This document shows, in pieces, positions 3,594 through 37,623 of a DNA stretch of 64,000 nucleotides (the first letter of the stretch is position 1; every line of letters begins with the position of its first letter). The DNA lies in the IMG/VR virus record IMGVR_UViG_3300025435_001056, positions 112,633-176,632 of that record; one strand, 5' to 3'. Under the pieces are notes generated by a model. The model was not told the origin of the DNA and ran no database searches. It saw nothing but the letters and a program-made list of their open reading frames with translations. This stretch comes from a virus. The position numbers and the translations under genes are program-made.

Positions 3594-3757
3594 TGACCTT
3601 AGATCAAGCCTGTGCTAGAATTGTTGCCTACAGTGTGGTCAACGGTATTGAAAGTCTAACAGCGGTAGAGCGTATGGTCAAATACTATCGACTCTTATCC
3701 ACCGAAGATCAACAAGCCGTTACAGTATTCATGGACAAAACAAAGGAGACAGCATGA
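3593..3757 (+). CDS. Small hypothetical protein, 54 aa; not in ORF track
   Basis: TAATG overlap with the previous stop and ATGA overlap with the next gene. Confidence 0.65.
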   Translation: MTLDQACARIVAYSVVNGIESLTAVERMVKYYRLLSTEDQQAVTVFMDKTKETA

Positions 3758-3882
3758 AAGCATTCGTATTAGGAACCGTTTTTGGTATTTTGATCTGTAC
3801 CGTTGGTCTATCCGGAATTGCCAAGATGCTAGACAACGGAGTAGCCAAGGTCCAGGAAGTATCCAAAGAAGCCGCCAAATAA
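3754..3882 (+). CDS. Small membrane peptide, 42 aa; not in ORF track
   Basis: AAGGAG RBS; MKAFVLGTVFGILICTVGLSGIAK hydrophobic N-terminus. Confidence 0.7.
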   Translation: MKAFVLGTVFGILICTVGLSGIAKMLDNGVAKVQEVSKEAAK

Positions 3883-3916
3883 GGCTCTTTTGGATAACCA
3901 AATATAGCAATTATGG

Positions 3917-3945
3917 TTGACTTCAAACCCGAATTCAAGTATAAT
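3917..3945 (+). promoter_or_regulatory. sigma70-type early promoter
   Basis: TTGACT-N17-TATAAT. Confidence 0.75.
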
Positions 3946-4011
3946 AGTTATTGTAGTGAGAAGTAAAGGCAGTTTAAATCAACTTAATAGGCAACTTAGA
4001 AAGGCAACACA

Positions 4012-4335
4012 ATGTCACAAGAAAAATTATTTACAGTAGCAGGTACAGCAACTAACGCCGATGGCACAGTTAAGGCACGTTTTGCAAACGACTTGGTAGC
4101 TCGGATCAAGATCCTAAACAAAGCAGGTTGCACCAATATCAACCTTATGGAATTGCCACAAGCAATGACCAAGCTCCAGGCTCTTCAGTACCTGACAGAG
4201 CAGGGTGTCACAGGTGATGCGGGTTACGCAGTAGCCAACAAACTTGCAGAAAAGACCAAGATCGCTAAAAAAGCCGAAATTAAGGTTGCAGGTAAGGCTA
4301 TTAAGTCTGTTAAAGTAGAAAAAGTAACAGCCTAA
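4012..4335 (+). CDS. Hypothetical protein with Lys/Ala-rich C-terminus (possible nucleic-acid binding)
   Basis: 107-aa ORF behind promoter; basic tail. Confidence 0.7.
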   Translation: MSQEKLFTVAGTATNADGTVKARFANDLVARIKILNKAGCTNINLMELPQAMTKLQALQYLTEQGVTGDAGYAVANKLAEKTKIAKKAEIKVAGKAIKSVKVEKVTA

Positions 4336-4380
4336 TAGGTAGTGGGGCAGGTGCAAACTATAAGTCCCCTAACTTATATC

Positions 4381-8845: not shown

Positions 8846-9388
8846 ATGCGTGAAATAATTGACCTAGTAGAAGCTTCTACCCGACCAGCCAAGCTGGAAA
8901 CCACAACCTTGCCCTACACTCACAAGGCCTTGGAACCGGTTATGAGTGCAGATACCATTGAGTATCATTACGAACATTTGGCCAAGGGCTATGCAAAGAA
9001 ATACAATGCAGGCGAAGGCGACCCTGACTTTAATCGTGCTGGAAGTTTCCTGCACAACAAGTTCTTCCCACAGTTGCGTGAACCTCGCGGTGCCAATAGA
9101 CCCAAGGGTGCAGTATTGGAACTGATTGAAACCAAGTTCAAAACCTACGAAGACTTTAAAGCAGCAGTTAAAGAAGTGGCCATGAAGATCCAAGGAAGTG
9201 GTTGGATATATCTATCAACCGGTGGCGAAATCAAAACCATTCGCAATCATGCTGTTCGTACCGATATCTGTGTCTTGATTGACTGGTGGGAGCACTCGTG
9301 GAGTTTGGATTATCAATGGGACAAAGAGAAGTATTTGGATAACATCTGGAAGATTATCAACTGGGATGTTTGCAACGAACGGTTGTAG
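8846..9388 (+). CDS. sod: Fe/Mn superoxide dismutase
   Basis: LPYTHKALEPVMSADTIEYHY, FLHNKFF, IQGSGW, DWWEH metal-ligand motifs. Confidence 0.85.
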   Translation: MREIIDLVEASTRPAKLETTTLPYTHKALEPVMSADTIEYHYEHLAKGYAKKYNAGEGDPDFNRAGSFLHNKFFPQLREPRGANRPKGAVLELIETKFKTYEDFKAAVKEVAMKIQGSGWIYLSTGGEIKTIRNHAVRTDICVLIDWWEHSWSLDYQWDKEKYLDNIWKIINWDVCNERL

Positions 9389-9416
9389 TCATAAATACTC
9401 GTGGGAACACGCAACC

Positions 9417-9884
9417 ATGAGAACAACCAAAAAACACAGACGCATTTACGAAGATTATTATAATGTAAGATTGCCAAGCATTATTGAAATACATCATATT
9501 GATGGCAATCACGATAACAATGATATCACAAACTTAATGGCAGTTACTATCGAAGAGCACTTTGAAATTCATAGACAACAGGGCGATTACGCTGCGGCAT
9601 TTAGAATATCACAAAGAATGGAAGTTAGCAAAGAGGAAAAAAGTAGATTGGCATCCTTAGCCGCAACCAAAGCCAATGCAGAAGGAAAATGCGGGTTTAA
9701 ATTGGGTCATGCTTCGATCGCTGGAAAGGTAGGCGGCAAAAAAGGTGGCGCCTATGCTAAGGAAAACCGTACAGGAATATTTGCATTAACACCCGAACAG
9801 AATAAACAACGACATTTCAATTCTGTAGTAACCAAAATGATTAAAGCCGGCAAAGCAAGTGCTTGGCCAAGAGAGGAAATATGA
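9417..9884 (+). mobile_element. Free-standing HNH homing endonuclease
   Basis: HRRIYE..EIHHIDGNHDNNDITNL..EEHFEIH; own TAAATA at 9392; inserted between sod and erpA. Confidence 0.75.
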
Positions 9885-10207
9885 TTACAATTACAGATTC
9901 AGCAGTATCAAAACTCCAAGATATTCTGATAGAGGAAGCCAACCCTAATCTTAAACTTCGTGTGTTTGTACAAGGTGGTGGATGCAGTGGTATGCAATAT
10001 GGTTTTACTCTGGACGAAGAGCAGGCCGAAGATGACTGGGATCTGGATGTCAATGGTGTCCATGTGCTAGTTGACAGCATGAGTGGTGGGTATTTGCAAG
10101 GAGCCACCATAGACTATCGAGAAGATCAATACGGCAGCAGTTTCAGCATCAACAATCCCAACGCTCAAACCACCTGCGGTTGCGGTAGTAGCTTTAGCCC
10201 TTACTAA
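9881..10207 (+). CDS. erpA: A-type iron-sulfur cluster carrier (ErpA/IscA/HesB)
   Basis: [17 protein letters not shown] and [14 protein letters not shown]. Confidence 0.92.
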
Positions 10208-10234
10208 CCAGAATACTCTAGCTTAACCCTATGC

Positions 10235-10240
10235 TAAATA
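10235..10240 (+). promoter_or_regulatory. T4-like late promoter inside a 9-bp inverted repeat
   Basis: TAAATA within CCCTATGCT-AAATAC-AGTATAGGG (10227-10250), ahead of the structural block. Confidence 0.6.
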
Positions 10241-10261
10241 CAGTATAGGGGTCCTGAATCT

Positions 10262-12301
10262 ATGAGTCAAGTATACATCAATGTAGGAGCAACACCAAAC
10301 GACGGTGATGGCGATCCCATCCGCACGGCGTTTATTAAAACTAACACCAATTTTAGCACACTTTTTAGCATACCGCAAGCCAGTCCTCCTCCAACATTGG
10401 TAGGCAGCCCCGGTGATTTTGCTGGCATGTATGCCTATAGCGGTTCTTATTTTTACTATTGTTTTGCTAACTATACCGGCAATACAACAATTTGGGCACA
10501 AATTACACAAGCTGGTAATGTTTCAGTTTCGGCCATTAACAATGGAACCAGCAATATATCAATTGCAGGAGTCAATGCCAATGCCACAGTCAATATTAAT
10601 GGCACCAGCGATGTGGCAGTTTTTAGCAATGCCGGCATTTTTCTCAGTGGTGTAGTCAGTGCCACTGGTAATATACGCGGCGGCAACATTAATACAGCCG
10701 GAGTAGTCAGTGCCATTGGAAATATTTCTGGAAATTATATACTGGGAAATGGAAGTCAACTGACTGGATTACCGGCCACTTATTCAAATGCCAATGTGGC
10801 TAATTATTTGCCAGTATATTCGGGCAACATATCAAGCAACAATTTATCAGCTACGGGCAATATTGTTGGCAATAATATTTTTTCCAGCAGTATCATCAGT
10901 GCCACAGGCAATATTGTTACTGCTGGATATTTTGTTGGAAACTTTGCCGGCAATATCACTGGAAATTTGGTGGTACCTGGTTCAAACACTGAAGTGTTGT
11001 TCAATACCAATGGAAACTCTGATGCGGTAGCTGGCATGACCTACAACAAAGGAACCAATACTTTTGCAGTATTGGGAACTGTTAGCTCACAAGGTAATAT
11101 CATTGGCGGTAACATTGTCACTGTGGGACTAATCACTACCGCAGGAAATGTGTATGCTGCTAACATCACAGGTGGTAATCTATTAACCGGTGGACTGATT
11201 AGTGCGGCTGGATCACTCAATACCAACACTAGTGTCATTGCTCAAGGTAACATACGTGGTGGAAATTTGATCAGCAACGGATTGATCACATCCACCGGTA
11301 ATGTTACCGGTGGCAACTTGTTGACAGGCGGTCTGGTTTCAGCCACAGGCAACATAAGTGGTAACTATATTCGTGCTGGGCAAGATATCAATGCTGGCGG
11401 CAATGTCACGGCCGTCAATGTCAATGCCAATATAGCCAGTATCATTGGCAATGTCTACGGCGGCAATATTTCAACTGTTGGTCTAATAAGTGCTGTAGGA
11501 AATGTCTCTGGCAATTATTTTATTGGCAATGGAAGACAGCTTACTGGATTGCCAACTTCATACAGCAATACTGATGTGGCCTCCTTTTTATCTGCGTACG
11601 GTTCCAACACTGTCAGCACTACCGGCACTGTAACCGCAGGTAATATCACAGGTGGCAATGTGTTAACTGGTGGAGTTGTCTCTGCCATCGGCAATGTCAT
11701 TGGCAACTACATACTTGGTAACGGAAGTCAACTAACCGGATTGCCAGCCAATTACGGAAATTCAAATGTGACCACTTTGTTGGCGGCATTTGGAAGTAAT
11801 ACTATATCGACCACAGGAAACATTACAGTTGGCAATATTCTTAATGCCAACGCAAATGCCCAAGGCAATATTGGATCGCCTGGTGTATATTTCAACACAG
11901 TTTTTGCGCAGGCTACTTCGGCACAGTATGCTGACTTGGCTGAATGTTATCTAGCTGATGCCGACTATACCCCTGGAACTGTAGTTAGTTTTGGGGGTAC
12001 TGCAGAAGTTACCACTAGTGATATAGATGCAGATCCTAAGATTGCTGGTGTAGTAAGTACTCATCCGGCTCACCTAATGAATTCTAAGTTATCTGGAGAT
12101 CATGTGGTAGCTGTGGCTTTGGTAGGTCGTGTGCCATGTCACGTAATAGGACCTGTTACTGCAGGAGCCATGATGGTGTCGGCCGGTAATGGTCGTGCTA
12201 GAGCTGAAGTTGACCCAGCAATGGGCACAGTAATTGGCAAGGCTGTACGGGCATTTGATGGTGCAACAGGTACTATTGAAATAGTTGTTGGAAGAATTTA
12301 A
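10262..12301 (+). CDS. Tail fibre/baseplate protein with GN-rich repeats and C-terminal autoproteolytic chaperone-like domain
   Basis: N-terminus INVGATPNDGDGDPIRTAFIKTNTNF (T4 gp9/gp10-like), many SATGNI.GGN repeats, C-terminal [20 protein letters not shown]. Confidence 0.75.
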   Translation: MSQVYINVGATPNDGDGDPIRTAFIKTNTNFSTLFSIPQASPPPTLVGSPGDFAGMYAYSGSYFYYCFANYTGNTTIWAQITQAGNVSVSAINNGTSNISIAGVNANATVNINGTSDVAVFSNAGIFLSGVVSATGNIRGGNINTAGVVSAIGNISGNYILGNGSQLTGLPATYSNANVANYLPVYSGNISSNNLSATGNIVGNNIFSSSIISATGNIVTAGYFVGNFAGNITGNLVVPGSNTEVLFNTNGNSDAVAGMTYNKGTNTFAVLGTVSSQGNIIGGNIVTVGLITTAGNVYAANITGGNLLTGGLISAAGSLNTNTSVIAQGNIRGGNLISNGLITSTGNVTGGNLLTGGLVSATGNISGNYIRAGQDINAGGNVTAVNVNANIASIIGNVYGGNISTVGLISAVGNVSGNYFIGNGRQLTGLPTSYSNTDVASFLSAYGSNTVSTTGTVTAGNITGGNVLTGGVVSAIGNVIGNYILGNGSQLTGLPANYGNSNVTTLLAAFGSNTISTTGNITVGNILNANANAQGNIGSPGVYFNTVFAQATSAQYADLAECYLADADYTPGTVVSFGGTAEVTTSDIDADPKIAGVVSTHPAHLMNSKLSGDHVVAVALVGRVPCHVIGPVTAGAMMVSAGNGRARAEVDPAMGTVIGKAVRAFDGATGTIEIVVGRI

Positions 12302-27753: not shown

Positions 27754-27791
27754 AATCATAGTGTTATCGTAATCTAGGTATATAATTGCCT

Positions 27792-28475
27792 ATGAAACTA
27801 AAAAGTTTTGGATGTAGTTTTATCTTTGGTTCAGAACTGGCCGATGATGGGCATGGTGGACCGTATGCTACGCCTAGTCAGTTGACTTGGCCTGCACATT
27901 TAGCTAGTTATTTAAATCGTCAATACGAATGCTATGCTCGTCCAGGGTCTGGGAATCTACAGATATTAGAAAGTATCTTAAATCAAGCAGCCACCAGTAC
28001 CAGTTCGGATTTATTTGTTATTGGATGGACCTGGATCGATCGATTTGATTACTACCCAACAAATCCCAACACGCCTAGTCGCAGTCCTTGGCGTACTATT
28101 ATGCCGGTAGATACCGATACAGTAGCTCAAGTTTACTATAGAAATCTACATTCAGAATATCGTGACAAACTTGTTTCTTTGGCCAATATCAAATTGGCCA
28201 TTGATACATTACAACAACGACAAATTCCCTTTGTGATGACCTACATGGATCAACTGTTGTTTGATCAGCAGTGGCATATTACCCCGGCTGTGATCGAACT
28301 ACAAACCTATGTGCAACCTTTTATGAAAAATTTTGATGGACAAACATTTTTAGAATGGAGCAGGGCCAATGATTATCCAGAAACTGCGGCTTGGCATCCT
28401 TTAGAAGAAGCACACCGAGCCGCATCTGATTTTATGATTAAAGTTTTTGATAAACAAAATACAGGCGATTGTTAG
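27792..28475 (+). CDS. SGNH/GDSL hydrolase-like protein
   Basis: FGCSFIFG, ARPGSGN, IGWTWIDR, WHPLEEAH; paralogous to the 22275 protein. Confidence 0.65.
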   Translation: MKLKSFGCSFIFGSELADDGHGGPYATPSQLTWPAHLASYLNRQYECYARPGSGNLQILESILNQAATSTSSDLFVIGWTWIDRFDYYPTNPNTPSRSPWRTIMPVDTDTVAQVYYRNLHSEYRDKLVSLANIKLAIDTLQQRQIPFVMTYMDQLLFDQQWHITPAVIELQTYVQPFMKNFDGQTFLEWSRANDYPETAAWHPLEEAHRAASDFMIKVFDKQNTGDC

Positions 28476-29166
28476 CATCCTTCTTGAATTCCAATAGTTT
28501 GAGATTAAACAGTTCGGCAAACTCATTTACTAGCTCAAACGACCAGGGAAAAATATCCACATACGGTCCTGTTTTATGGGTCACTCCGGGGTTAGCACGC
28601 AGATAAAAACGTCCACCCGTTTTAAGCAGATCCACGCAGTGTCCAAAACGAGCTTCGATTTCATCTTGGCTGTTAAAATTGATAGATCCCAAGGCCATGA
28701 TCACATCGTACTTGTGCTTTACACGGTATTCGAGAATATCTACCTGATAGTCAGCTGCGTCATTGTAAGGATCAATGCCCACTAAATTTTGAATACGGCC
28801 TTTGAATGGATGATACCCACAGCCCACATCCAGTACAGCTTCGGGATTGAGTTTGTTGATTTCTTCTGCTAGTTGCCAACCAGTGTGATTGTAATCATCC
28901 GTACGCGGTTTCCAAATTTCCCCAAAAAAGCGCAGAATGTAGCGTTCGCTGATGGTGTCTACAATTTTGAGCAACGGGCCGTTGAAGCCGCAGTCTTCCA
29001 ACATGAGTTCAGCTTCTATCGTATCCTTGAACTTGCGATAACGAGCCGGCGTCCAAGGCAGTTGATCTACCTCAGTGTCGACGTCAATAGAAATATTCTT
29101 ATACTTGGGTAAATTAAAAGTATCTTGTAAATTTTTTGTAATTAGGTTAAAAATTTTGGTATTCAT
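28438..29166 (-). CDS. Class I SAM-dependent methyltransferase
   Basis: VLDVGCG, GIDP, YDVIMALGSINF, LLKTGG. Confidence 0.8.
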   Translation of the reverse strand: MNTKIFNLITKNLQDTFNLPKYKNISIDVDTEVDQLPWTPARYRKFKDTIEAELMLEDCGFNGPLLKIVDTISERYILRFFGEIWKPRTDDYNHTGWQLAEEINKLNPEAVLDVGCGYHPFKGRIQNLVGIDPYNDAADYQVDILEYRVKHKYDVIMALGSINFNSQDEIEARFGHCVDLLKTGGRFYLRANPGVTHKTGPYVDIFPWSFELVNEFAELFNLKLLEFKKDANNRLYFVYQKL

Positions 29167-29257
29167 TAAAAATTTTCCGTTTTAGGTAAATAATTTTACA
29201 AAGAGCTTAAAAATTTTAGGCCACTTGTAAATTCATATAACTATTTAAGGAGATTTT

Positions 29258-29953
29258 ATGAACTCAAAAGAATTTGTTGCCAAGATCGTGGCCGATAACC
29301 AAGCCCTGTTTCAAGCAAGCCAGCACAATGTTCGGGCTTACTTTGACAGTAAGCCAGCTCAAGAAGAACTGGTAGAGCACTTTATTGGCCGTATGGTCAA
29401 TGAGCGTATGAACATGGTTGAGATCAGCCAAGCTATTGCTACCATGCCTGCCGATGCAGATCCTGTAGAATTACAGTTGTTGACACAACAGGCTGCCGAC
29501 GAAGCTGTTCATTTCCGTCTTGTTAAAGAAGTTATTGAACACATTCAAGGTGCACCAGTTGATGTAGAAGCCGCCATTGCTCGCGAAGCCGCTAAACCAA
29601 CTGCCAAAGGTGCTGGTTTATTGGCCAAGTACGGTGCAGAGAATGATCGAGTGGCTCTTGCCGCTTATCAGTTGGTTGCCGAAGGTCGCGCCGAAGCTGT
29701 TTGGAACACTATGGCCGAGTGCATTGAAGATGAATTTATTAGTAAAAGTTATGCCAAAATTGCCCGGGATGAAGGTTTCCACAGCAAGATTGGTGCTCGT
29801 AAGCTAGAGCAGTTAGTTACAGATGCAGAAGTTGCTGCTCGAGTTGAAACATTGGTTGCCGCTATGCGTAAAGACTTGTATGAAATTTCATGCCGGAACA
29901 CTGTAGCAGCTGAAGCTGGCAAAGAGCTAGTGGCAGACGCATACGGTTGGTAA
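29258..29953 (+). CDS. Ferritin-like diiron-carboxylate protein
   Basis: E...DEAVH...E...DEGFH paired ExxH motifs; AAGGAG RBS; TAAATA at 29187. Confidence 0.85.
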   Translation: MNSKEFVAKIVADNQALFQASQHNVRAYFDSKPAQEELVEHFIGRMVNERMNMVEISQAIATMPADADPVELQLLTQQAADEAVHFRLVKEVIEHIQGAPVDVEAAIAREAAKPTAKGAGLLAKYGAENDRVALAAYQLVAEGRAEAVWNTMAECIEDEFISKSYAKIARDEGFHSKIGARKLEQLVTDAEVAARVETLVAAMRKDLYEISCRNTVAAEAGKELVADAYGW

Positions 29954-29954
29954 T

Positions 29955-30515
29955 TTGAAAATAGGACTCACTCAGCGGATCCTAAACTTCAGAGGGCGGG
30001 CGTATGACTCAATTGAGCATGGTTGGTATTCCTACTTGAAAGAGCATACGCTTGTTTTTGTTCCCAATCGATTAGATCAGGATTTTGAATCAGTAGCACA
30101 AGAAGTAGATTGTCTTATTATCACCGGTGGCGATGATCGTTTGATCAGACGCACCACAGAATTACAATTAGCCACAGCAGTAATAAAACAACAAAAACCT
30201 ATTTTGGGTGTATGTCATGGAGCATTTTTGCTGACTGATGTGTTTGGCGGTATAGTCGGTCGTAAAGACGGACATAGAGATGGAATTGAACATGTGGTCC
30301 GGTATTGTGAGCAGGATTATGTGGTCAACAGTTTTCACGGACTTGCAATTGAATCGGCACCACCCACAGCACAAGTACTGGCTCGAGACCCCGATGGCAC
30401 TTGCGAATCCTGGATTGATGGGTTGGTAGCAGCAGTAGTATGGCATCCAGAACGTATGGCAAACCCCTGGTTGCCAACAGAAATACAAAATTTAATATTC
30501 AAGGACAACAAATGA
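29955..30515 (+). CDS. Class I glutamine amidotransferase / peptidase C26 (PuuD-like)
   Basis: LIITGGDD, ILGVCHG nucleophile elbow, VNSFH, WHPE triad. Confidence 0.85.
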   Translation: MKIGLTQRILNFRGRAYDSIEHGWYSYLKEHTLVFVPNRLDQDFESVAQEVDCLIITGGDDRLIRRTTELQLATAVIKQQKPILGVCHGAFLLTDVFGGIVGRKDGHRDGIEHVVRYCEQDYVVNSFHGLAIESAPPTAQVLARDPDGTCESWIDGLVAAVVWHPERMANPWLPTEIQNLIFKDNK

Positions 30516-31486
30516 AAAAATTATTAGCGGTATTATTATTAATCCCAACCCTGGCCATGGCCTGGGAACCTATATATCCAGTTTCTGTAATTGTGGGCAA
30601 CACTCCCGGAGCTGGCAACGAAATTGCCTTTAGAGCCCTGGCAGCTGTTGTGCAAAAAAACAATCCCAAGTTTGTGTATGTGGTCGAAAACAAACCCGGT
30701 GCTGATTCAGTAGTGGCTCAAAATTATTTCCTACAGCAACCAGCCGATGGATACACCATCAATCTACCCAGCCATATGAGTACCTATGTGACTAATGACA
30801 TCTGGGAAGCCAAGATCAAAAAGTTTAACTACGATTCATTCATTGATGTCATGACCATGGGCAAGAGTCCATTGGTCCTGGTTGCCAATGCAAAAAGCAA
30901 GATCAATACTCCGGTTGAATTTATTAGATTAATTGCTACAACTACCCGTCCTATTAATGTTGCGGTAGGCGGTGGTGCTCATAGAACTGCCTACGAATAT
31001 CTTATGATGAAGGCCCATGGCAACGCTGACCTGGTCAAACCTATCAAGTTCAATGGTCCTTTACCGGCAGTGACCAGTGTTGCATCATTTGATACCGCCG
31101 GAGGAACAGAATTTGGTATTATGCCCATTGCTGTGGCTCGGCCATTGGTTGAGGCTGGCAAGGTCAAGCCCATTGGATTTACAGGCACACACCGCATGCC
31201 ACAATATCCCAATGTTCCCTTGTTAAATGAATGGGTTCCCGGTATCAATGTATATGCCGCTTGGTCAATAGAATTACCCAAAGGCACGCCTCAAGAAGTA
31301 GTCGATTGGTATCAGCAGAAGTTTAGTGCGGCTGTACATAGTGCGGAGTATAAAAAGTGGTGCGAACAAAATGTGGTCTTTGTGGATGAGTCTGAACTAA
31401 AGCCAGCTGGACTACGCCGGCACATGGAGGAACTGCGTGCTACATTCTTGCCTGTGTTGAAAACTATTGATTTAAGCAAAGAATGA
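30512..31486 (+). CDS. Bug/TctC-family periplasmic solute-binding protein
   Basis: Signal peptide MKKLLAVLLLIPTLAMA; VENKPGA, PADGYT, GKVKPIG, YPNVP, LPKGTPQEVV. Confidence 0.85.
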   Translation: MKKLLAVLLLIPTLAMAWEPIYPVSVIVGNTPGAGNEIAFRALAAVVQKNNPKFVYVVENKPGADSVVAQNYFLQQPADGYTINLPSHMSTYVTNDIWEAKIKKFNYDSFIDVMTMGKSPLVLVANAKSKINTPVEFIRLIATTTRPINVAVGGGAHRTAYEYLMMKAHGNADLVKPIKFNGPLPAVTSVASFDTAGGTEFGIMPIAVARPLVEAGKVKPIGFTGTHRMPQYPNVPLLNEWVPGINVYAAWSIELPKGTPQEVVDWYQQKFSAAVHSAEYKKWCEQNVVFVDESELKPAGLRRHMEELRATFLPVLKTIDLSKE

Positions 31487-32103
31487 AATATATCTTTTGT
31501 GCAGGTGCACCTGGCTCAAAATGGAGCAGTCTAATCAAAAACATCTACTACAGCCCCGATGTGGATCGTTCGGACTATTCGGATGACAGAACCTACTGGC
31601 ACGATGCTCCGGGACAGTTGGAACTCATGCACCTAGGTGCTTATTTTGATCCTGGCATGGAGTTTGGCGACTGGTTTGATCGTTTGGACCAATATACTCG
31701 GGCCGAATGTGAAGCTGAATTTGACCGCCCGTTTTCGGGCACAGGTATTCGTATCATCAAAAGCCATGTGTTTGCACATCACATAGATTTTATCAAACAG
31801 ACCTGGCCTGATTGCCCTGTTATCCTGGCACATCGCAACAATGATGCCGCACTGGGCTGGTGGGTCAAGTGTGGACACTTTAATATTACCTACCCGCTAT
31901 ATGATAAGTACTATCGAGATCTGCGAACCATGGCTGGCATAATTGCCAATCAAAATCAGGATATACAAAAAGCATGGGATCATCACAAGGGTAAAATACC
32001 TCCAAATAATCTTGCGTTGGCAGATATTTTAGGAATCAAATTGCCGCCTGATAATTATTTTCAAGACTACAGACAATCGGACCTAGGAGTAAAGGTAATA
32101 TGA
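31483..32103 (+). CDS. Sulfotransferase-like / P-loop-like protein
   Basis: N-terminal AGAPGSKWS loop, IIKSH, WPDCPVILAHR resemble sulfotransferase motifs. Confidence 0.55.
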   Translation: MKYIFCAGAPGSKWSSLIKNIYYSPDVDRSDYSDDRTYWHDAPGQLELMHLGAYFDPGMEFGDWFDRLDQYTRAECEAEFDRPFSGTGIRIIKSHVFAHHIDFIKQTWPDCPVILAHRNNDAALGWWVKCGHFNITYPLYDKYYRDLRTMAGIIANQNQDIQKAWDHHKGKIPPNNLALADILGIKLPPDNYFQDYRQSDLGVKVI

Positions 32104-32786
32104 AAAATCAAGCAGATTACGACAGCAGTTGGCAATGGTGTGTGGATCACAGTTGTTATCATTTTGATAACACTCGCATTGACCAGCCTGGTGAATGGTT
32201 TCGGGTCTTGGGTCGTTTTGAAGGCAACTGGACCGACGAAGTGACACAGGCTCAAGGAAAACCCATAACTTGGGCTACCCGTAAATTTTACGGCAATGAC
32301 GATGATACCGTAAGTCCCATGTTAGCTCAAGAAGAAAACGATCTTAGAACTACAGGTGCTCCGGTAGATCTTGAACTGACCGACGCAGTATTTGATATCA
32401 CGCCTTATCCTACCTTGATACGCATGAGTGAATACTTTGGTATAGCAGATGCCAAGATTCGCATGCATTATCAAAGACCAGGGCAGATGTTCAACCTGCA
32501 CATAGACAAATTGCAGGATCGTTGTCCTGAAGATCCTGAACAAGTGATCAGAATGACCATCATGCTAGCCGACTGGGCACCTGGACAATTTTACTCTTAC
32601 GGTACCTGTAACTACTCACACTGGCGTGCCGGAGATGTTCATATCTTTGATTGGGCCAATGTGCCACATGCCACGGCCAATGCCAGTCGCCACATGCGCC
32701 CGGTGCTACAGATCACTGGACTCAAAACCGAACACACTAGAAAATTATTAGAATACGCAGGACCCGAAGCCAGATATCAGGTATGA
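32100..32786 (+). CDS. Cupin-fold Fe(II)/2OG-type oxygenase (Asp/Asn beta-hydroxylase-like)
   Basis: PGQMFNLHID (HxD), WRAGDVHIFD, VPHATAN..R. Confidence 0.7.
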   Translation: MKNQADYDSSWQWCVDHSCYHFDNTRIDQPGEWFRVLGRFEGNWTDEVTQAQGKPITWATRKFYGNDDDTVSPMLAQEENDLRTTGAPVDLELTDAVFDITPYPTLIRMSEYFGIADAKIRMHYQRPGQMFNLHIDKLQDRCPEDPEQVIRMTIMLADWAPGQFYSYGTCNYSHWRAGDVHIFDWANVPHATANASRHMRPVLQITGLKTEHTRKLLEYAGPEARYQV

Positions 32787-33418
32787 CACAAACAAAAAAA
32801 CTGTTGATCCTGACCGGTCCACAGGGTGCAGGCAATCACATGTGGTCAAAAATCTTTGCTCTGTATCCAAGGACCTTTGGCTGGCAGGCTCTGCTGGACA
32901 AATACTGGATTGGGCATGATCAAGAACCCTTTGCTGAATACTGGGAAGATCCTGAAAAATTAAAAGACTTTGATTGGTCTGGTCACGATTACTTTGTGAC
33001 CAGTATCAGCGTGCCTTACATGCTGAATGGTGAACGTACCATACCTCGTTTTGGTCCATTCATACAGGCAGTTCGGGCAGCCGGAGTACAGATCCAATTT
33101 GCCATTCTAGGCCGAGATGCCAACATACTTGAAATGCAAGAAACTCGTGTGCGTGGAGAGCCTACCTTGCATCTAGCTGTTAACGAGCTGGCCAAACTAT
33201 CTGGGCAGATGCCACAATTTCTCAGTTACGAATTGTTGCATTTATATGGCCGTGACTATCTACAACAATTAAATACCATACTCGAGTTTCCTGTGGTTCA
33301 TACAGATCCCAGGATTAACGAAATCATAAAGGAAGACGCAAATACCAAATATTTTCAACCTGTAGAACATCATTGGGTAGACGATTTGGCCAAACATACT
33401 TCAAGGAAATGGCGATGA
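32783..33418 (+). CDS. Sulfotransferase-like / P-loop-like protein
   Basis: LILTGPQGAGNHMWSK N-terminal loop; FLSYELL late motif. Confidence 0.55.
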   Translation: MTQTKKLLILTGPQGAGNHMWSKIFALYPRTFGWQALLDKYWIGHDQEPFAEYWEDPEKLKDFDWSGHDYFVTSISVPYMLNGERTIPRFGPFIQAVRAAGVQIQFAILGRDANILEMQETRVRGEPTLHLAVNELAKLSGQMPQFLSYELLHLYGRDYLQQLNTILEFPVVHTDPRINEIIKEDANTKYFQPVEHHWVDDLAKHTSRKWR

Positions 33419-34251
33419 CACAACGAATTTTAATCATGGGTTTACCAGGATCGGGCAAAACAACTCTAGCAGGTGTTTTAAAAAAATACTTAGAAGAGCA
33501 TGGCGATATCAACTATACTCGAGCATTAAACGAATGCATCGGACCCGGAGTCATGGTTAATTGGTTCAATGCTGATGATGTCCGTCGCAAGTACAACGAC
33601 TGGGACTTTAGTCAGGATGGTCGCATTCGTCAGAGCCTGCGCATGTTTCAGTTCAGCATGGAGTCCGGAGGCGACTATGTGATCTGTGACTTTGTTGCAC
33701 CCTTAGTAGAACAGCGTAACAACTTTAAGGCTGATTGGACCATCTGGGTAGACACTATCCGTGAAGGACGTTATGCTGATACCAATCGAGCCTTTGTGGA
33801 ACCTGAACAGTACGACTTCCGCATTATCGAGCAGAATGCAGAAAAATGGGCTGAATTTATTGGTGAACACATTGTAGCCAATCGTCGTCGTCCGGTCTTT
33901 GATTGGCAGAAGGAAACTGTACAGATGCTGGGCCGTTGGCAACCCTGGCATGACGGACATCGTGCCCTGTTTGAACGCTTGATTGCTCGCACCGGGCAGG
34001 TAGTAATTCAAATTCGTGATTGCCAGGGCTGGCAAGGTTCGAACCCATTTGAAATAAAAAAAGTTAAAGAATTTATTCGACGCGACCTGGATCCAATCTA
34101 TCAAGGACAATACGAAATACAAGTAGTTCCTAACATTGTACATATTGGATGGGGCCGTGGAGTTGGTTATACGTCGGGCAAAGAAACGTTTGACGAAAGC
34201 ATTACTGACATAAGTGCTACCAAAATTCGTCGAGAAATGGGCCTTGAGTGA
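33415..34251 (+). CDS. cysC: Adenylylsulfate kinase fused to HxGH nucleotidyltransferase (PAPS synthase-like)
   Basis: GLPGSGKTT, NADDVR, DFSQDGRIRQ, DFVAP, FVEP; second domain GRWQPWHDGH..ISATKIR. Confidence 0.8.
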   Translation: MTQRILIMGLPGSGKTTLAGVLKKYLEEHGDINYTRALNECIGPGVMVNWFNADDVRRKYNDWDFSQDGRIRQSLRMFQFSMESGGDYVICDFVAPLVEQRNNFKADWTIWVDTIREGRYADTNRAFVEPEQYDFRIIEQNAEKWAEFIGEHIVANRRRPVFDWQKETVQMLGRWQPWHDGHRALFERLIARTGQVVIQIRDCQGWQGSNPFEIKKVKEFIRRDLDPIYQGQYEIQVVPNIVHIGWGRGVGYTSGKETFDESITDISATKIRREMGLE

Positions 34252-34462
34252 TACCGCTTTACAAAGTTTGGTTAAAGCCATCAGTTGGCAAGTAACTGGA
34301 TCCATTGACACTTTTGTTATCAGCTGGTTGATTACTGGTCAGGTGTTACTGGCCAGTGGTATAGCCTTTACTGAAATTATAACCAAGGTCTTTTTGTTTT
34401 GGGCCCACGAGCGAGTATGGAATAAGATTGCGTGGGGTATTGACTTGGTTGACAAAAAATAG
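34244..34462 (+). CDS. DUF2061-like small membrane protein
   Basis: SLVKAISWQVTGSIDT..HERVWNKIAWG; TTG start overlapping the cysC end. Confidence 0.8.
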   Translation: MSDTALQSLVKAISWQVTGSIDTFVISWLITGQVLLASGIAFTEIITKVFLFWAHERVWNKIAWGIDLVDKK

Positions 34463-34479: not shown

Positions 34480-35271
34480 ATGAAAAATTATTACGAAGCC
34501 TTAGGAGTCGATCGCACGGCCAGCCCAGATGAAATCAAACTGGCCTATCGACGATTAGCCAGCCAACATCATCCTGACAAGGGCGGAGACAAGCATCGAT
34601 TCCAAGAAGTTGAAGAAGCCTACAGGACTCTAAGTGATCCCAATGCACGAGCTCAATATGACAATCCTATAAGTGCTCGTGGCCCTGGATTTGGTTTTCA
34701 ACCCAATGGTTTTGATTTTGAATCAATATTTGATATTTTTGGTGCCAGATTTCAGCATCCGCATCAACAACAACGCCGAGCACAACATGCCATTATGACC
34801 TTGTGGATTACCTTGAAAGATGTGGCCCTGGGTGGTCGCAAAACAGTCAGCGTAGGTACTCCTCAGGGAAACTCCACAATTGAAATAGAAATACCCAAAG
34901 GAATCAATGATGGCGATAATGTACAATATGGTGGTGTTGGTCCCAATGGTATGGATCTAGTGATTACCTACAGAATACATCAGGATCCTAAGTGGAATCG
35001 CAACGGCCTTACCTTACATGCAAAAGAAAACATATCTGTTTGGGATTTGATACTAGGTACAGAATTACCTGTTCGTGACATATTGGGAAATAGCCTAACT
35101 TTAACTGTGCCGCCTAGATCACAACCTGACACAATACTGCGCCTGCGCGGTCGCGGACTAACCGATCGGGCAGGCAACACCGGTGATATGTTGGTCAAAC
35201 TACAAGTACAAATTCCTGATATTATTCCGCAAGAATTATTGGACCACATTACTCAAATCCGTGGTCAATAA
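34480..35271 (+). CDS. dnaJ: DnaJ/CbpA-like co-chaperone without zinc finger
   Basis: J domain with HPD motif, G/F region, C-terminal LRLRGRGL..GDMLV. Confidence 0.9.
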   Translation: MKNYYEALGVDRTASPDEIKLAYRRLASQHHPDKGGDKHRFQEVEEAYRTLSDPNARAQYDNPISARGPGFGFQPNGFDFESIFDIFGARFQHPHQQQRRAQHAIMTLWITLKDVALGGRKTVSVGTPQGNSTIEIEIPKGINDGDNVQYGGVGPNGMDLVITYRIHQDPKWNRNGLTLHAKENISVWDLILGTELPVRDILGNSLTLTVPPRSQPDTILRLRGRGLTDRAGNTGDMLVKLQVQIPDIIPQELLDHITQIRGQ

Positions 35272-35284
35272 ATAATCCTATAGC

Positions 35285-35313
35285 TTGCATTTTGTATTAA
35301 AATACAGTATAAT
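35285..35313 (+). promoter_or_regulatory. sigma70-type promoter with palindromic spacer
   Basis: TTGCAT-N17-TATAAT; TGTATT-AA-AATACA in the spacer. Confidence 0.65.
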
Positions 35314-35346
35314 AAACATTCGGTTAACATATTAAAAAAGGAACAC

Positions 35347-37623
35347 ATGCAAACTAGCCCCGAAATTGAACAGATCCTAGAAAACGCAGTTGGTCTGGCC
35401 CGCGAATACAAACACGAATATGTCTTAACCGAACATGTGTTGTTGGCTCTGATACGTTACAACCCCTTCCGTAAATGTTTAGAAAAATACGGTACCAATG
35501 CGGATCTTATGGATCAAGAGATTCAGGCCTATCTGCTCAGCCTAACCAATCTGGTTACTGACAAAGATGCTCCACCTAAAAAAACTAATGCACTAGAACG
35601 TTGTTTTAACCGAGCTTTGACCCAGGTGTTGTTTACCGGACGCCGTCAGGTGGCCACAGCTGATCTTTATCAGGCCATGATGGCCGAGACCAATAGTCAT
35701 GCACACTATTTTCTGCTCAAGTATGGCGTGCAGAAAAAAGACTTTATGGAGTTTTGGCAACAACACTACAATCATGCCGATGTAACTTTGAGTGATCAGC
35801 AGGCCTCTGAAATACTTACACAACACTGTTTGGATTTGACCAAGCTGGCTAAAGAAGATCGATTAGAGCCCATGATCGGACGATCCGCTGAAGTAGAAGA
35901 AATGATCACAGTTCTGGCACGCAAGTTTAAAGCCAATGTGCTCATGGTTGGTGATCCTGGGGTGGGCAAAACTGCTATTATTGAAGGCCTAGCACAAGAA
36001 ATTAGTACAGGTCGTGTACCAGAGTTCTTGAAAGATCATGAAGTGTGGAGCCTAGAAATAGCTAGTTTGTTAGCCGGAAGCAAATATCGTGGCGAGTTTG
36101 AAGAAAAATTCAAACAGGTCATTGCCGCACTTGAAACCAAGAAAAAATGTATTTTGTTCATTGACGAAGCACATACCATGATGGGTGCTGGAAGTTCTAG
36201 CAACAGTACCTTGGATTTTGCCAACATGTTAAAACCAGCCATTACTAAAGGTAATTTAAAAGTAGTAGCAAGCACTACCTGGGAAGAATACTACGAGTCA
36301 TTTGAAAAAGATCGCGCACTTATGCGTCGTTTTCATCGTGTAGCCATCGACGAGCCCACACCCGAAGTAACAGAGCAAATTCTTATTGGACTTAGCCCAA
36401 GATTAGAGTCATTTCACAATGTGTTAATTGGTACTGATGCTATCACTTCTGCTGTAGAATTAAGTGGTCGATATATACATGATCGTAAAAATCCCGACAA
36501 GAGTATTGATCTAATTGACGGTGCCTGTGCTCGAGAGCGTGTAAAAGACAAAGGTACAGTCACAGTTAATCAAGACATGATCATGGCACAGCTGAGTCGT
36601 GTGACCTCAGTACCGTTAGATCGTTTGCAAAATGAGAGCAGTCAAAATATTGTCGAACTAGAAAGCAATATTAAACAAAAGCTCTATGGACAAGATACTG
36701 CCGTAGATGCAGTACTAGAACGCATTTATATTAATTTTAGTGGTATTGGGAATGGCCGTCGTCCTATTGCCAGCTACCTATTCCTGGGACCCACAGGTAC
36801 TGGTAAAACAGAACTAGCCAAGTTGTTGGCTGAAAATCTAGATATGAAATTGCTCAAGTATGATATGTCAGAATATCAAGAACGACACACGGTTAGCAGT
36901 CTAATTGGTGCACCTCCGGGTTATGTAGGATTCGAAGATGGCAATATCGGCGGCGGCAAGTTGATTAGTGATATTAGTAAAAATCCATTTAGTATTTTGT
37001 TGTTCGATGAAATCGAAAAAGCTCACCCCGATGTAATCAATATCATGTTGCAAATGTTAGATGAAGCCCGTATTACTAGCAGTAATGGTAAAGTGGTAGA
37101 TCTTAAAAATTGCATCATTATCATGACATCGAACTTGGGTGCTAGAGACAACGAAACAAACAACATTGGTTTTGGACAAAGTTTAGAAAAAACCGGCAGT
37201 GAAGATAAGGCCATGAAAGAATTCTTTAAGCCTGAACTACGTAATCGCATTGATCAAGTCTGTAAGTTTATTAAACTGGACAACTTGGCTATCAAGAAGG
37301 TAGTAGTCAAATTTGTAGATGAACTAAAGGCTACGCTTGCAGATCGTCATGTTGATTTGACCTTGACTGAACCCGTAATTGATCTTTTGGTCGAAAAGGG
37401 CTATGACAGCCGGATGGGTGCCAGACCTCTAAGTCGCAAGATTGATGAACTAATTCGTGTACCATTAAGTAAACGTATCTTGTTTGATCGTTTAGAAAAT
37501 TGCGCTATCCGTGCGGTTTTAAATGGCGATCAAATTGAATTTGTTACCAATAATGCCAACACCGGGTCCGTTGTCGATGACCAAGGATATATTGTAATTG
37601 ACCAAATCGATCCTCCCGTTTAA
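35347..37623 (+). CDS. clpA: ClpA-like AAA+ unfoldase
   Basis: Clp N domain, two Walker A motifs (GDPGVGKT, GPTGTGKT), KYRGEFEE, GAPPGYVG, IGF ClpP-docking loop, no M domain. Confidence 0.92.
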   Translation: MQTSPEIEQILENAVGLAREYKHEYVLTEHVLLALIRYNPFRKCLEKYGTNADLMDQEIQAYLLSLTNLVTDKDAPPKKTNALERCFNRALTQVLFTGRRQVATADLYQAMMAETNSHAHYFLLKYGVQKKDFMEFWQQHYNHADVTLSDQQASEILTQHCLDLTKLAKEDRLEPMIGRSAEVEEMITVLARKFKANVLMVGDPGVGKTAIIEGLAQEISTGRVPEFLKDHEVWSLEIASLLAGSKYRGEFEEKFKQVIAALETKKKCILFIDEAHTMMGAGSSSNSTLDFANMLKPAITKGNLKVVASTTWEEYYESFEKDRALMRRFHRVAIDEPTPEVTEQILIGLSPRLESFHNVLIGTDAITSAVELSGRYIHDRKNPDKSIDLIDGACARERVKDKGTVTVNQDMIMAQLSRVTSVPLDRLQNESSQNIVELESNIKQKLYGQDTAVDAVLERIYINFSGIGNGRRPIASYLFLGPTGTGKTELAKLLAENLDMKLLKYDMSEYQERHTVSSLIGAPPGYVGFEDGNIGGGKLISDISKNPFSILLFDEIEKAHPDVINIMLQMLDEARITSSNGKVVDLKNCIIIMTSNLGARDNETNNIGFGQSLEKTGSEDKAMKEFFKPELRNRIDQVCKFIKLDNLAIKKVVVKFVDELKATLADRHVDLTLTEPVIDLLVEKGYDSRMGARPLSRKIDELIRVPLSKRILFDRLENCAIRAVLNGDQIEFVTNNANTGSVVDDQGYIVIDQIDPPV

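Follow-up and report, generated by a model that had tools for sequence, protein, structure and literature searches.

We examined a 64-kb stretch of viral DNA, hereafter the window, which is the last, 3' part of a 176.6-kb phage record in IMG/VR (IMGVR_UViG_3300025435_001056, positions 112,633 to 176,632). Within it lies a block of nine genes whose predicted products include two proteins of sulfotransferase fold (ST1 and ST2), a secreted solute-binding protein, an oxygenase, an S-adenosylmethionine (SAM)-dependent methyltransferase, and a fusion of a kinase domain of the adenosine 5'-phosphosulfate (APS) kinase family to a compact nucleotidyltransferase (NT). Because the record is estimated to be only 51% complete at its present length, its source is a jumbo phage; genes for a T4-type DNA polymerase and a Lon-like protease lie in the window. 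A search of sequencing runs recovered near-identical DNA in 24 runs, all 24 of freshwater or lake DNA and none of RNA, and blastn with the operon region found no nucleotide match among 50,697 GenBank phage records. These genes form a genuine, conserved module that freshwater phage data contain in great numbers, and its sulfation logic is coherent but unproven.

Operon structure and protein families

Open reading frame calling and translation place one gene on the minus strand (28438-29166) and eight on the plus strand (29258-34462), confirming the nine genes described in an earlier sequence-only reading of this DNA, with three start sites corrected (Table 1). The plus-strand genes form one tightly coupled operon. 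ATGA overlaps join the amidotransferase gene to the gene for the TctC-type binding protein, TctC to ST1, ST1 to the oxygenase, the oxygenase to ST2, and ST2 to the kinase fusion; the amidotransferase gene begins with a TTG codon 1 nt past the stop codon of the diiron-protein gene, and the DUF2061 gene overlaps the end of the kinase gene. Translation of TctC most likely starts at 30512, where the resulting signal peptide is conserved in 12 of 12 orthologues, and not at 30440, and DUF2061 may start at a TTG (34244) instead of a GTG (34214).

Table 1. Positions of the features discussed, in window coordinates unless another locus (L) is named.
Feature	Position	Strand	Basis
Putative class I SAM-dependent methyltransferase, divergent	28438..29166	-	SAM motif I; relatedness to fused methyltransferases
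TAAATA promoter-like element	29187-29192	+	Conserved in the divergent intergenic region between methyltransferase and operon
Putative ferritin-like diiron-carboxylate protein (accessory)	29258..29953	+	Six-ligand residue pattern
Stand-alone class I glutamine amidotransferase / peptidase C26-type gamma-glutamyl hydrolase (accessory)	29955..30515	+	Pfam
Secreted TctC/Bug-family solute-binding protein	30512..31486	+	Pfam; similarity to solved members; signal peptide
Sulfotransferase ST1, small bacterial natural-product type	31483..32103	+	Predicted fold; Pfam matches within the family
2-oxoglutarate/Fe(II) oxygenase-like protein	32100..32786	+	Invariant iron-triad residues; constant partner of ST1
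Sulfotransferase-fold protein ST2	32783..33418	+	Predicted fold
APS-kinase-family domain of the fusion	33415..33864	+	Pfam APS_kinase (PF01583)
Compact HxGH nucleotidyltransferase domain, about 110 residues	33907..34251	+	Signature motifs
DUF2061 small membrane protein	34214..34462	+	Pfam DUF2061, 71.5 bits
Radical SAM clusters near ST1-methyltransferase fusions	L090:180-5766; L175:3521-4380 and 9360-10676		
SGNH/GDSL-like genes, recurrences	L014:3885-6021; L180:2806-3351; L181:1695-2270 and 3705-4364		

In searches of the PDB by sequence and by profile, neither ST1 nor ST2 returned anything usable, and hhalign detected no sequence relation between the two. An AlphaFold model of ST1, built from a 64-sequence alignment, reached a predicted local distance difference test (pLDDT) score of 97, and exhaustive structural comparison against 48,161 chains returned sulfotransferases in all of the top nine positions (Z 11.4-8.2), led by tyrosylprotein sulfotransferase 1 (TPST1; Z 11.4, root-mean-square deviation (rmsd) 3.8 over 168 residues). 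The best protein of another kind was a uridylate kinase at Z 8.2, with generic P-loop kinases scoring at most 8.2. The exhaustive aligner was needed here: Foldseek returned sulfotransferases only weakly, at E values of about 0.01. In the ST1 model, the loop G-x-P-G-S-K-W-S (residues 8-15) sits between strand 3-8 and helix 14-22, and a K93-x-H95 motif that is 90-100% conserved comes after strand 89-93; this Lys and His may be the counterparts of those in cytosolic sulfotransferases. Four residues (G8, G11, H95 and W127) never vary in the family, conservation of the P-loop and of K93-x-H95 is 90% or higher, and 15 of the 64 family members match Pfam Sulfotransfer_3.

The ST2 model (pLDDT 83.6) likewise aligns best with sulfotransferases, which take its top eight positions (Z 11.4-8.9), headed by an olefin-synthase sulfotransferase (Z 11.4, rmsd 3.1, 166 residues) and including TPST2 (Z 10.5); the margin is small, as the first other protein also scores Z 8.9. 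ST2 has no Pfam match, and its feature neighbours in the Atlas include viral sulfotransferase clusters at 0.94. On these models, both proteins have the sulfotransferase alpha/beta fold and would be enzymes that transfer sulfate from 3'-phosphoadenosine 5'-phosphosulfate (PAPS). Structural matching thereby upholds the sulfotransferase-like pair that had been proposed at 31483 and 32783, for which a PAPS-binding fold was the point at issue. A longer ST1 relative or fusion of 798 residues (P0140; L091:91-2487) carries 600 C-terminal residues without a Pfam match; look-ups of the database entries P0160 and P0263 led only to short contigs.

The binding protein is a clear member of its family, scoring 71.7 bits against Pfam TctC (cut-off 27). 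Its profile matches solved binding proteins of tripartite tricarboxylate transporters (TTT), Bug27, AdpC and terephthalate-binding proteins at E values from 2.5e-24 to 1.7e-15. A literature search for phage TctC yielded only a match to a primer string.

Two further enzymes accompany ST1 in every one of the 34 full-flank loci considered below. The divergently transcribed gene encodes a putative class I methyltransferase in which SAM motif I (VLDVGCG) is invariant across 21 orthologues. In proteins in which an ST1 relative and a methyltransferase are fused (ST1::MT), the methyltransferase half shares 40% identity with it; those fusions match Pfam Methyltransf_23 (E 1e-7), the window protein itself has no Pfam match, and its PDB profile matches, to class I methyltransferases, are weak. 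The oxygenase-like protein retains the residues expected of a 2-oxoglutarate/Fe(II) enzyme, with an iron triad (H134-x-D136, H190) and a distal R200 invariant across 28 homologues. Its family-level matches are weak: the alkylsulfatase AtsK at E 0.05, Asp_Arg_Hydrox in 2 of the 28 homologues and PhyH in one. Comparison of the oxygenase family with a TauD-family phage protein by hhalign revealed no relation.

The first two genes of the operon are accessory. Residues E49, E82xxH85, E142 and E172xxH175, invariant across 18 orthologues, suggest a diiron site in the first product, which has no Pfam match and found nothing usable in PDB sequence and profile searches; its Atlas feature neighbours are named R2-like, AurF, DUF455 or rubrerythrin, names we treat as leads only. 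The second product exceeds the Pfam cut-offs of both Peptidase_C26 (59.8 bits) and GATase (45.3 bits) and has an invariant C87, H164, E166 triad. Its top NCBIfam match, gamma-glutamyl-CDP-amidate hydrolase, is full-length (E 1.1e-14) and scores 55 bits against a cut-off of 250.

The divergent intergenic region between the methyltransferase gene and the operon holds the hexamer TAAATA, which lies 71 nt ahead of the first ATG of the operon. Irrespective of which gene comes first in the operon, all but one of 42 distinct orthologous intergenic regions (41 of 42) contain the hexamer, whereas shuffles averaged 11 and never exceeded 19, and the extended consensus around it reads G-A/G-TAAATA-A/T. 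Across the whole window TAAATA is not enriched (25 occurrences on the plus strand), scans for sigma-70 promoters and terminators were uninformative, and the window contains no copy of TATAAATA, the canonical late promoter of T4. We accept the element at 29187 as a conserved promoter-like sequence. Where the sequence-only reading spoke of genes mostly ATGA-coupled behind a TAAATA late promoter, the coupling and the conserved hexamer stand, and 'late' would apply only by analogy with T4.

Recurrence of the module and its transporter partners

We next consider how often these genes travel together. Counts were taken over 80 ST1-anchored loci, over 34 ST1-anchored loci that are non-redundant and have full flanks, and over a separate set of 80 kinase-anchored loci; a deep ST1 alignment was too diverse to serve for the locus scan. 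When loci were anchored on the kinase, the module looked rare because the kinase is so widespread, and anchoring on ST1 changed the picture (Table 2). Among the full-flank loci there are 24 different gene orders, and the retention of the same content through this reshuffling strongly argues for a shared function. The oxygenase gene adjoins ST1 in 79 of the 80 loci. The predicted co-occurrence is borne out, the genes being found together in hundreds of phage contigs. ST1 occurs on at least 550 contigs, and ST2 forms about 4,100 clusters. The earlier treatment of all the genes as one set needs to be loosened in that the diiron protein and the amidotransferase are accessory, present in about half of the loci, and the kinase often lies elsewhere in the genome; of five cases in which it was not adjacent to ST1, three had it elsewhere on the same contig, and the remaining two were small contig fragments.

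Table 2. Genes found near ST1 in ST1-anchored loci.
Gene	All loci	Full-flank loci	Remark
Oxygenase	79/80	34/34	
Methyltransferase	63/80	34/34	Always on the opposite strand in the 34
Any binding protein		26/34	Within 6 kb
ST2	45/80	22/34	
Canonical TctC	40/80	19/34	
Divergent TctC-like protein	16/80	7/34	
TctA	15/80	7/34	
Amidotransferase	31/80	18/34	
Diiron protein	30/80	16/34	
Kinase	25/80	12/34	

In most gene orders the binding protein sits between the methyltransferase and ST1, and its link to the enzymes extends to lineages in which other transporter parts are found. At two loci (L089, L090), ST1::MT fusions lie beside TctA, the permease subunit (297 bits), and a divergent TctC-like protein, and a more distant ST1::MT relative (L174) keeps company with a binding protein of the TRAP (tripartite ATP-independent periplasmic) type, DctP, with a 2-oxoglutarate oxygenase and with TctA. 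These arrangements support the view that the binding protein belongs functionally to the module. Three types of binding protein beside the same enzymes indicate that the enzymes of the ST1 module act on a compound from outside the cell; binding proteins of the TTT and TRAP families take organic acids, and some members carry sulfonates.

The binding protein had been called an orphan, which holds for this record, where no TctA is present (the record being 51% complete), and for a 99%-complete relative that also lacks one; it does not hold for the sister loci with TctA inside the module. A 98%-complete relative has a single TctA about 70 kb from its module. No TctB was recognised in the record, its relatives or the sister loci. 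In the 98%-complete, 340-kb relative (L093:4187-7768; G002:C1, about 112-116 kb), a Porin_4 porin (93 bits), a 378-residue protein and TctA occur as a set, which looks like a phage-borne route of uptake from the outer to the inner membrane. Radical SAM genes, some with B12-binding or SPASM domains, adjoin ST1::MT fusions in two other lineages, one of them marine (Table 1).

We found no paper describing the whole module in a literature search. Lake surveys list cysC as a phage auxiliary gene, which probably includes the kinase fusion family described below, and published surveys treat cysC and sulfotransferases as separate auxiliary genes.

The kinase-nucleotidyltransferase fusion and DUF2061

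The last two genes of the operon had been read as a PAPS synthase-like fusion and a DUF2061 protein. The kinase part of that description is sustained, the domain scoring 28.9 bits against Pfam APS_kinase (cut-off 21.1), with the NCBIfam equivalog models under their cut-offs. Its best PDB profile matches are APS kinases, apart from one designed P-loop protein. Alignments to human PAPSS1 and to an archaeal APS kinase span the P-loop and a D-x-D-x-x-R...F-S...R...S/A-P block; in the one to PAPSS1, the stretch of about 50 residues that follows the P-loop has the D-x-D-x-x-R, F-S and R positions in common. Phosphorylation of APS at its 3'-OH by this domain is supported indirectly, by its recurrence near sulfotransferases. 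Kinase-only proteins of about 145 residues occur in some sister modules, which is consistent with a requirement there for phosphorylating APS that the host provides.

The second half carries the H-x-G-H (WHDGH) and I-S-x-T-x-x-R (ISATKIR) motifs of nucleotidyltransferases, invariant in 15 homologues. Its closest relatives are archaeal-type nicotinamide mononucleotide (NMN) adenylyltransferases (NMNAT; NCBIfam E 2.5e-5, PDB 2qjt E 2e-4), with scores far under the family cut-offs (23.9 bits against 127 and 23.4 against 181). The ATP-sulfurylase family PF01747 (Sat type) matches nothing in the phage record at E<=1, nor does this half-genome encode a recognisable PAPS reductase, CysD or CysN, or any match to the PAPS_reduct/CysD type. 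The label 'ATP-sulfurylase-type' given to the HxGH enzyme in the sequence-only reading is therefore unsupported by homology, and classing the domain with the ATP sulfurylases would be wrong; its making APS from ATP and sulfate would be a guess, since it is NMNAT-like and has no detectable similarity to ATP sulfurylases.

Examination of the kinase-anchored loci and their relatives shows that the kinase, the nucleotidyltransferase and DUF2061 stay together in each fused or split arrangement encountered. DUF2061 adjoins the kinase fusion in 34 of the 80 loci. The window pairs a kinase-NT fusion with DUF2061, L180 has three separate overlapping genes in the order DUF2061-NT-kinase, and L181 has a kinase::DUF2061 fusion with a separate NT; stand-alone nucleotidyltransferases of 108-126 residues adjoin an APS kinase gene, and some match Pfam CTP_transf_like. 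A DUF2061 gene is also present in the Mesorhizobium nodH-nodP-nodQ locus, which, together with the fusion in L181, agrees with the earlier suggestion that DUF2061 is tied to sulfate activation. Sulfotransferases lie near the kinase fusion in 29 of the 80 loci, as ST1, as ST2, or as a 590-residue Sulfotransfer_3 protein (70 bits), three families that are mutually unrelated and occur in different lineages; a complete 162-kb genome with the fusion and without ST1 or ST2 has a Sulfotransfer_1 match elsewhere. The persistence of the three parts together, beside several sulfotransferase families, argues for PAPS as the product.

The fusion family is enormous: it makes up no fewer than 7,900 protein clusters (90% identity) and is found on at least 595 contigs of IMG/VR. 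Its six occurrences in genome bins are all on freshwater metagenome-assembled genome contigs, which are probably binned phage DNA, and the family is essentially confined to phage DNA. Public annotations of its members (P0010, P0011, P0016) conflict, naming adenylylsulfate kinase, DNA polymerase III delta prime subunit and the EcfA2 transporter ATPase.

Several other genes lie around the fusion. The protein of about 590 residues, which begins with a canonical sulfotransferase domain and has several RCC1-repeat proteins around it (L076:2720-4480, L050:2948-4726), lies 3-4 kb upstream of the fusion in 13 of the 80 loci. A TauD/TfdA-family dioxygenase gene stops 4 nt before the fusion in a complete 162-kb phage genome (L055:6969-7997). 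One lineage, seen in 8 of the 80 loci, has a 160-residue CTP_transf_like gene just upstream (L070:7217-7699, L074:7507-7992) and a PTPS (QueD-like) gene just downstream.

A candidate import-and-sulfation pathway and its rivals

We put at about even the chance that these genes constitute a module of phage accessory metabolism by which a small organic acid is sulfated, oxidised and methylated in the infected cell. In the order of steps that we presume, the secreted TctC protein would capture a carboxylate (or sulfonate) in the periplasm and pass it to a TctA-type permease, which would be the host's here and is phage-encoded in sister lineages. The kinase-NT fusion, working with DUF2061, would supply the sulfate donor, the APS-kinase domain converting APS to PAPS and the HxGH domain perhaps forming APS from ATP and sulfate. 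ST1, with ST2 where present, would then sulfate the imported compound, the 2-oxoglutarate oxygenase and the methyltransferase would act on the same compound, and the diiron protein and the gamma-glutamyl-hydrolase-type amidotransferase could provide optional extra tailoring or unmasking. In its fullest form, the proposal is a complete import-and-conjugate pathway of freshwater phages whose product is a sulfated, methylated organic acid specific to infected cells and whose PAPS comes from a three-part synthase (APS kinase, 110-residue NMNAT-like ATP sulfurylase, and DUF2061 as membrane partner); this version we offer tentatively, and judge it rather doubtful.

Several known systems share parts of this layout. 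Natural-product sulfation sets, such as CyrJ/CyrN/CyrI of cylindrospermopsin, SxtN/SxtO of saxitoxin and SulN/SulO/SulP of sulfazecin, resemble the phage genes in combining a PAPS-dependent sulfotransferase with a dedicated APS kinase, a 2-oxoglutarate oxygenase and a methyltransferase. Unlike those sets, the module is phage-borne, has no non-ribosomal peptide synthetase or polyketide synthase to build a scaffold, fuses its kinase to an NMNAT-like domain, and includes a solute-binding protein and sometimes a permease, so that the scaffold seems to be imported. The rhizobial nodH/nodP/nodQ genes (with nodS and nodU) similarly pair a sulfotransferase with its own PAPS supply, have DUF2061 in the Mesorhizobium locus, and belong to a toolkit of methyl and carbamoyl transferases that recalls the carbamoyltransferase abutting the kinase in L002 and L180. 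NodPQ, however, is a CysDN-type sulfurylase with an APS kinase, whereas the phage record has no CysD, CysN or Sat homologue, and the nod acceptor is a lipo-chitooligosaccharide made by nodABC, genes absent here. Animal PAPSS1/2 have the same domain order, an N-terminal APS kinase followed by a domain of the nucleotidyltransferase superfamily, and the kinase halves align; the phage C-terminal domain differs in being NMNAT-like, with about 110 residues and no homology to ATP sulfurylase, Sat-type sulfurylases having about 390.

The binding protein has precedents of its own. Like the orphan Bug proteins of Betaproteobacteria, most of which have no adjacent permease, it is a clear family member with a signal peptide and no adjacent permease in the window genome; unlike them and TctABC systems, it is phage-encoded and lies inside an enzyme operon, with sister phages supplying TctA and no recognisable TctB. 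Cyanophage pstS provides an example of a phage-supplied periplasmic binding protein that plugs into a host transporter, from which the present case differs in that the binding protein is coupled to enzymes modifying, and not simply assimilating, the imported compound.

A number of observations weigh against an imported small acid as the acceptor, and some of them favour a reading in which the enzymes decorate a macromolecule (a virion or envelope glycan, a protein or a peptide) and the binding protein is a separate nutrient-uptake gene travelling along, which we consider unlikely. In eight of the 34 modules, no binding protein is within reach. ST1 finds its best structural matches among protein-tyrosine sulfotransferases, and heparan sulfotransferases are also among the top matches of the pair; two oxygenase homologues weakly match an Asp/Asn hydroxylase family, and radical SAM/SPASM genes occur near the ST1::MT relatives. 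In other lineages the kinase trio adjoins genes for UDP-galactopyranose mutase, GT1, carbamoyltransferase and DegT aminotransferase, sugar-type neighbours that point to glycan acceptors there and lend macromolecule decoration some weight. The resemblance of the HxGH domain to NMN adenylyltransferases, with no detectable likeness to ATP sulfurylases, weakens the proposed synthesis of APS, and no reason is apparent for a phage to devote PAPS to an acid that it imports. Against decoration of a macromolecule, 26 of 34 loci, over 24 gene orders, have a binding protein no more than 6 kb from ST1, TctA and two unrelated binding-protein types (divergent TctC-like and DctP) recur beside ST1::MT fusions, and the operon in the window contains no glycosyltransferase or precursor-peptide gene.

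Two further explanations rate lower still. That the fusion is a nucleotide-cofactor salvage enzyme independent of the sulfotransferases, either NadR-like (nicotinamide riboside to NAD, or NAD to NADP) or coenzyme A synthase-like, would suit the NMNAT-like domain, the naming of stand-alone forms in source annotations as NMN or phosphopantetheine adenylyltransferase, and the lack of ST1 or ST2 at most of the 80 kinase-anchored loci. We regard this as improbable, given a kinase half that matches APS kinases and not ribosylnicotinamide or dephospho-coenzyme A kinases, NMNAT model scores that are all far under their cut-offs, a trio that includes DUF2061, found elsewhere with nodHPQ, and at least three sulfotransferase families nearby across lineages, with a fourth at a distance from it in one complete genome. 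That the genes are loosely grouped auxiliary genes, each independent of the others and sharing no pathway (cysC to help the host assimilate sulfur, a binding protein for nutrients, assorted oxygenases), would accord with the separate listing of cysC and sulfotransferase in published surveys and with the many unrelated contexts of the kinase fusion; we find it quite improbable in view of the five ATGA overlaps that couple the genes, the co-occurrence of methyltransferase, ST1 and oxygenase in 34 of 34 loci despite 24 gene orders, the ST1::MT fusions in several lineages, and the lack of a PAPS reductase in this half-genome.

An initial idea, since set aside, was that the module makes and transfers phosphoramidate as in the Campylobacter O-methyl phosphoramidate pathway, with the sulfotransferase-fold proteins using a PAPS-like donor. 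That pathway comprises a nucleotidyltransferase, gamma-glutamyl-CDP-amidate hydrolase (Cj1417), an APS-kinase-like 3'-kinase and methyltransferases, and it starts with a glutamine kinase containing PPDK_N and PEP-utilizer domains. The module has an APS-kinase-like domain, a nucleotidyltransferase and a methyltransferase, and the amidate hydrolase is the best NCBIfam model of its amidotransferase. Because that match is so far under its cut-off, and because no PPDK_N or PEP-utilizer domain of the glutamine-kinase type is present in four genomes with ST1 and its neighbours, each of them 98% complete or more, we think this pathway very improbable here; the hydrolase is also missing from 16 of the 34 modules, DUF2061 is tied to the nodHPQ sulfation genes, and canonical Pfam sulfotransferases lie beside the kinase in other lineages.

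If the genes do form one import-and-sulfation pathway, the ecological reading would no longer be one of sulfur assimilation but of a specific compound being sulfated under phage direction, in a module whose genes surveys have so far filed singly ('cysC', 'sulfotransferase') or as hypothetical. Both a new minimal ATP sulfurylase and a function for DUF2061 would become candidates open to testing, and the operon would offer small soluble sulfotransferases with a matched PAPS supply as possible biocatalysts. A three-part PAPS synthase, if true, would include an ATP sulfurylase of a kind not known before, and DUF2061 would for the first time have a function assigned to it.

The flanks of the operon hold further genes. 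Upstream, an SGNH/GDSL-like gene (27786-28475) belongs to a family without a Pfam match, which is also found near the kinase unit in a second lineage, in up to three tandem copies and beside a carbamoyltransferase (Table 1). Downstream (34480-37623), the operon is followed by a full DnaJ (J domain and C-terminal domain) and a 758-residue ATP-dependent protease (phrog_4871), a pair that is syntenic in jumbo-phage relatives.

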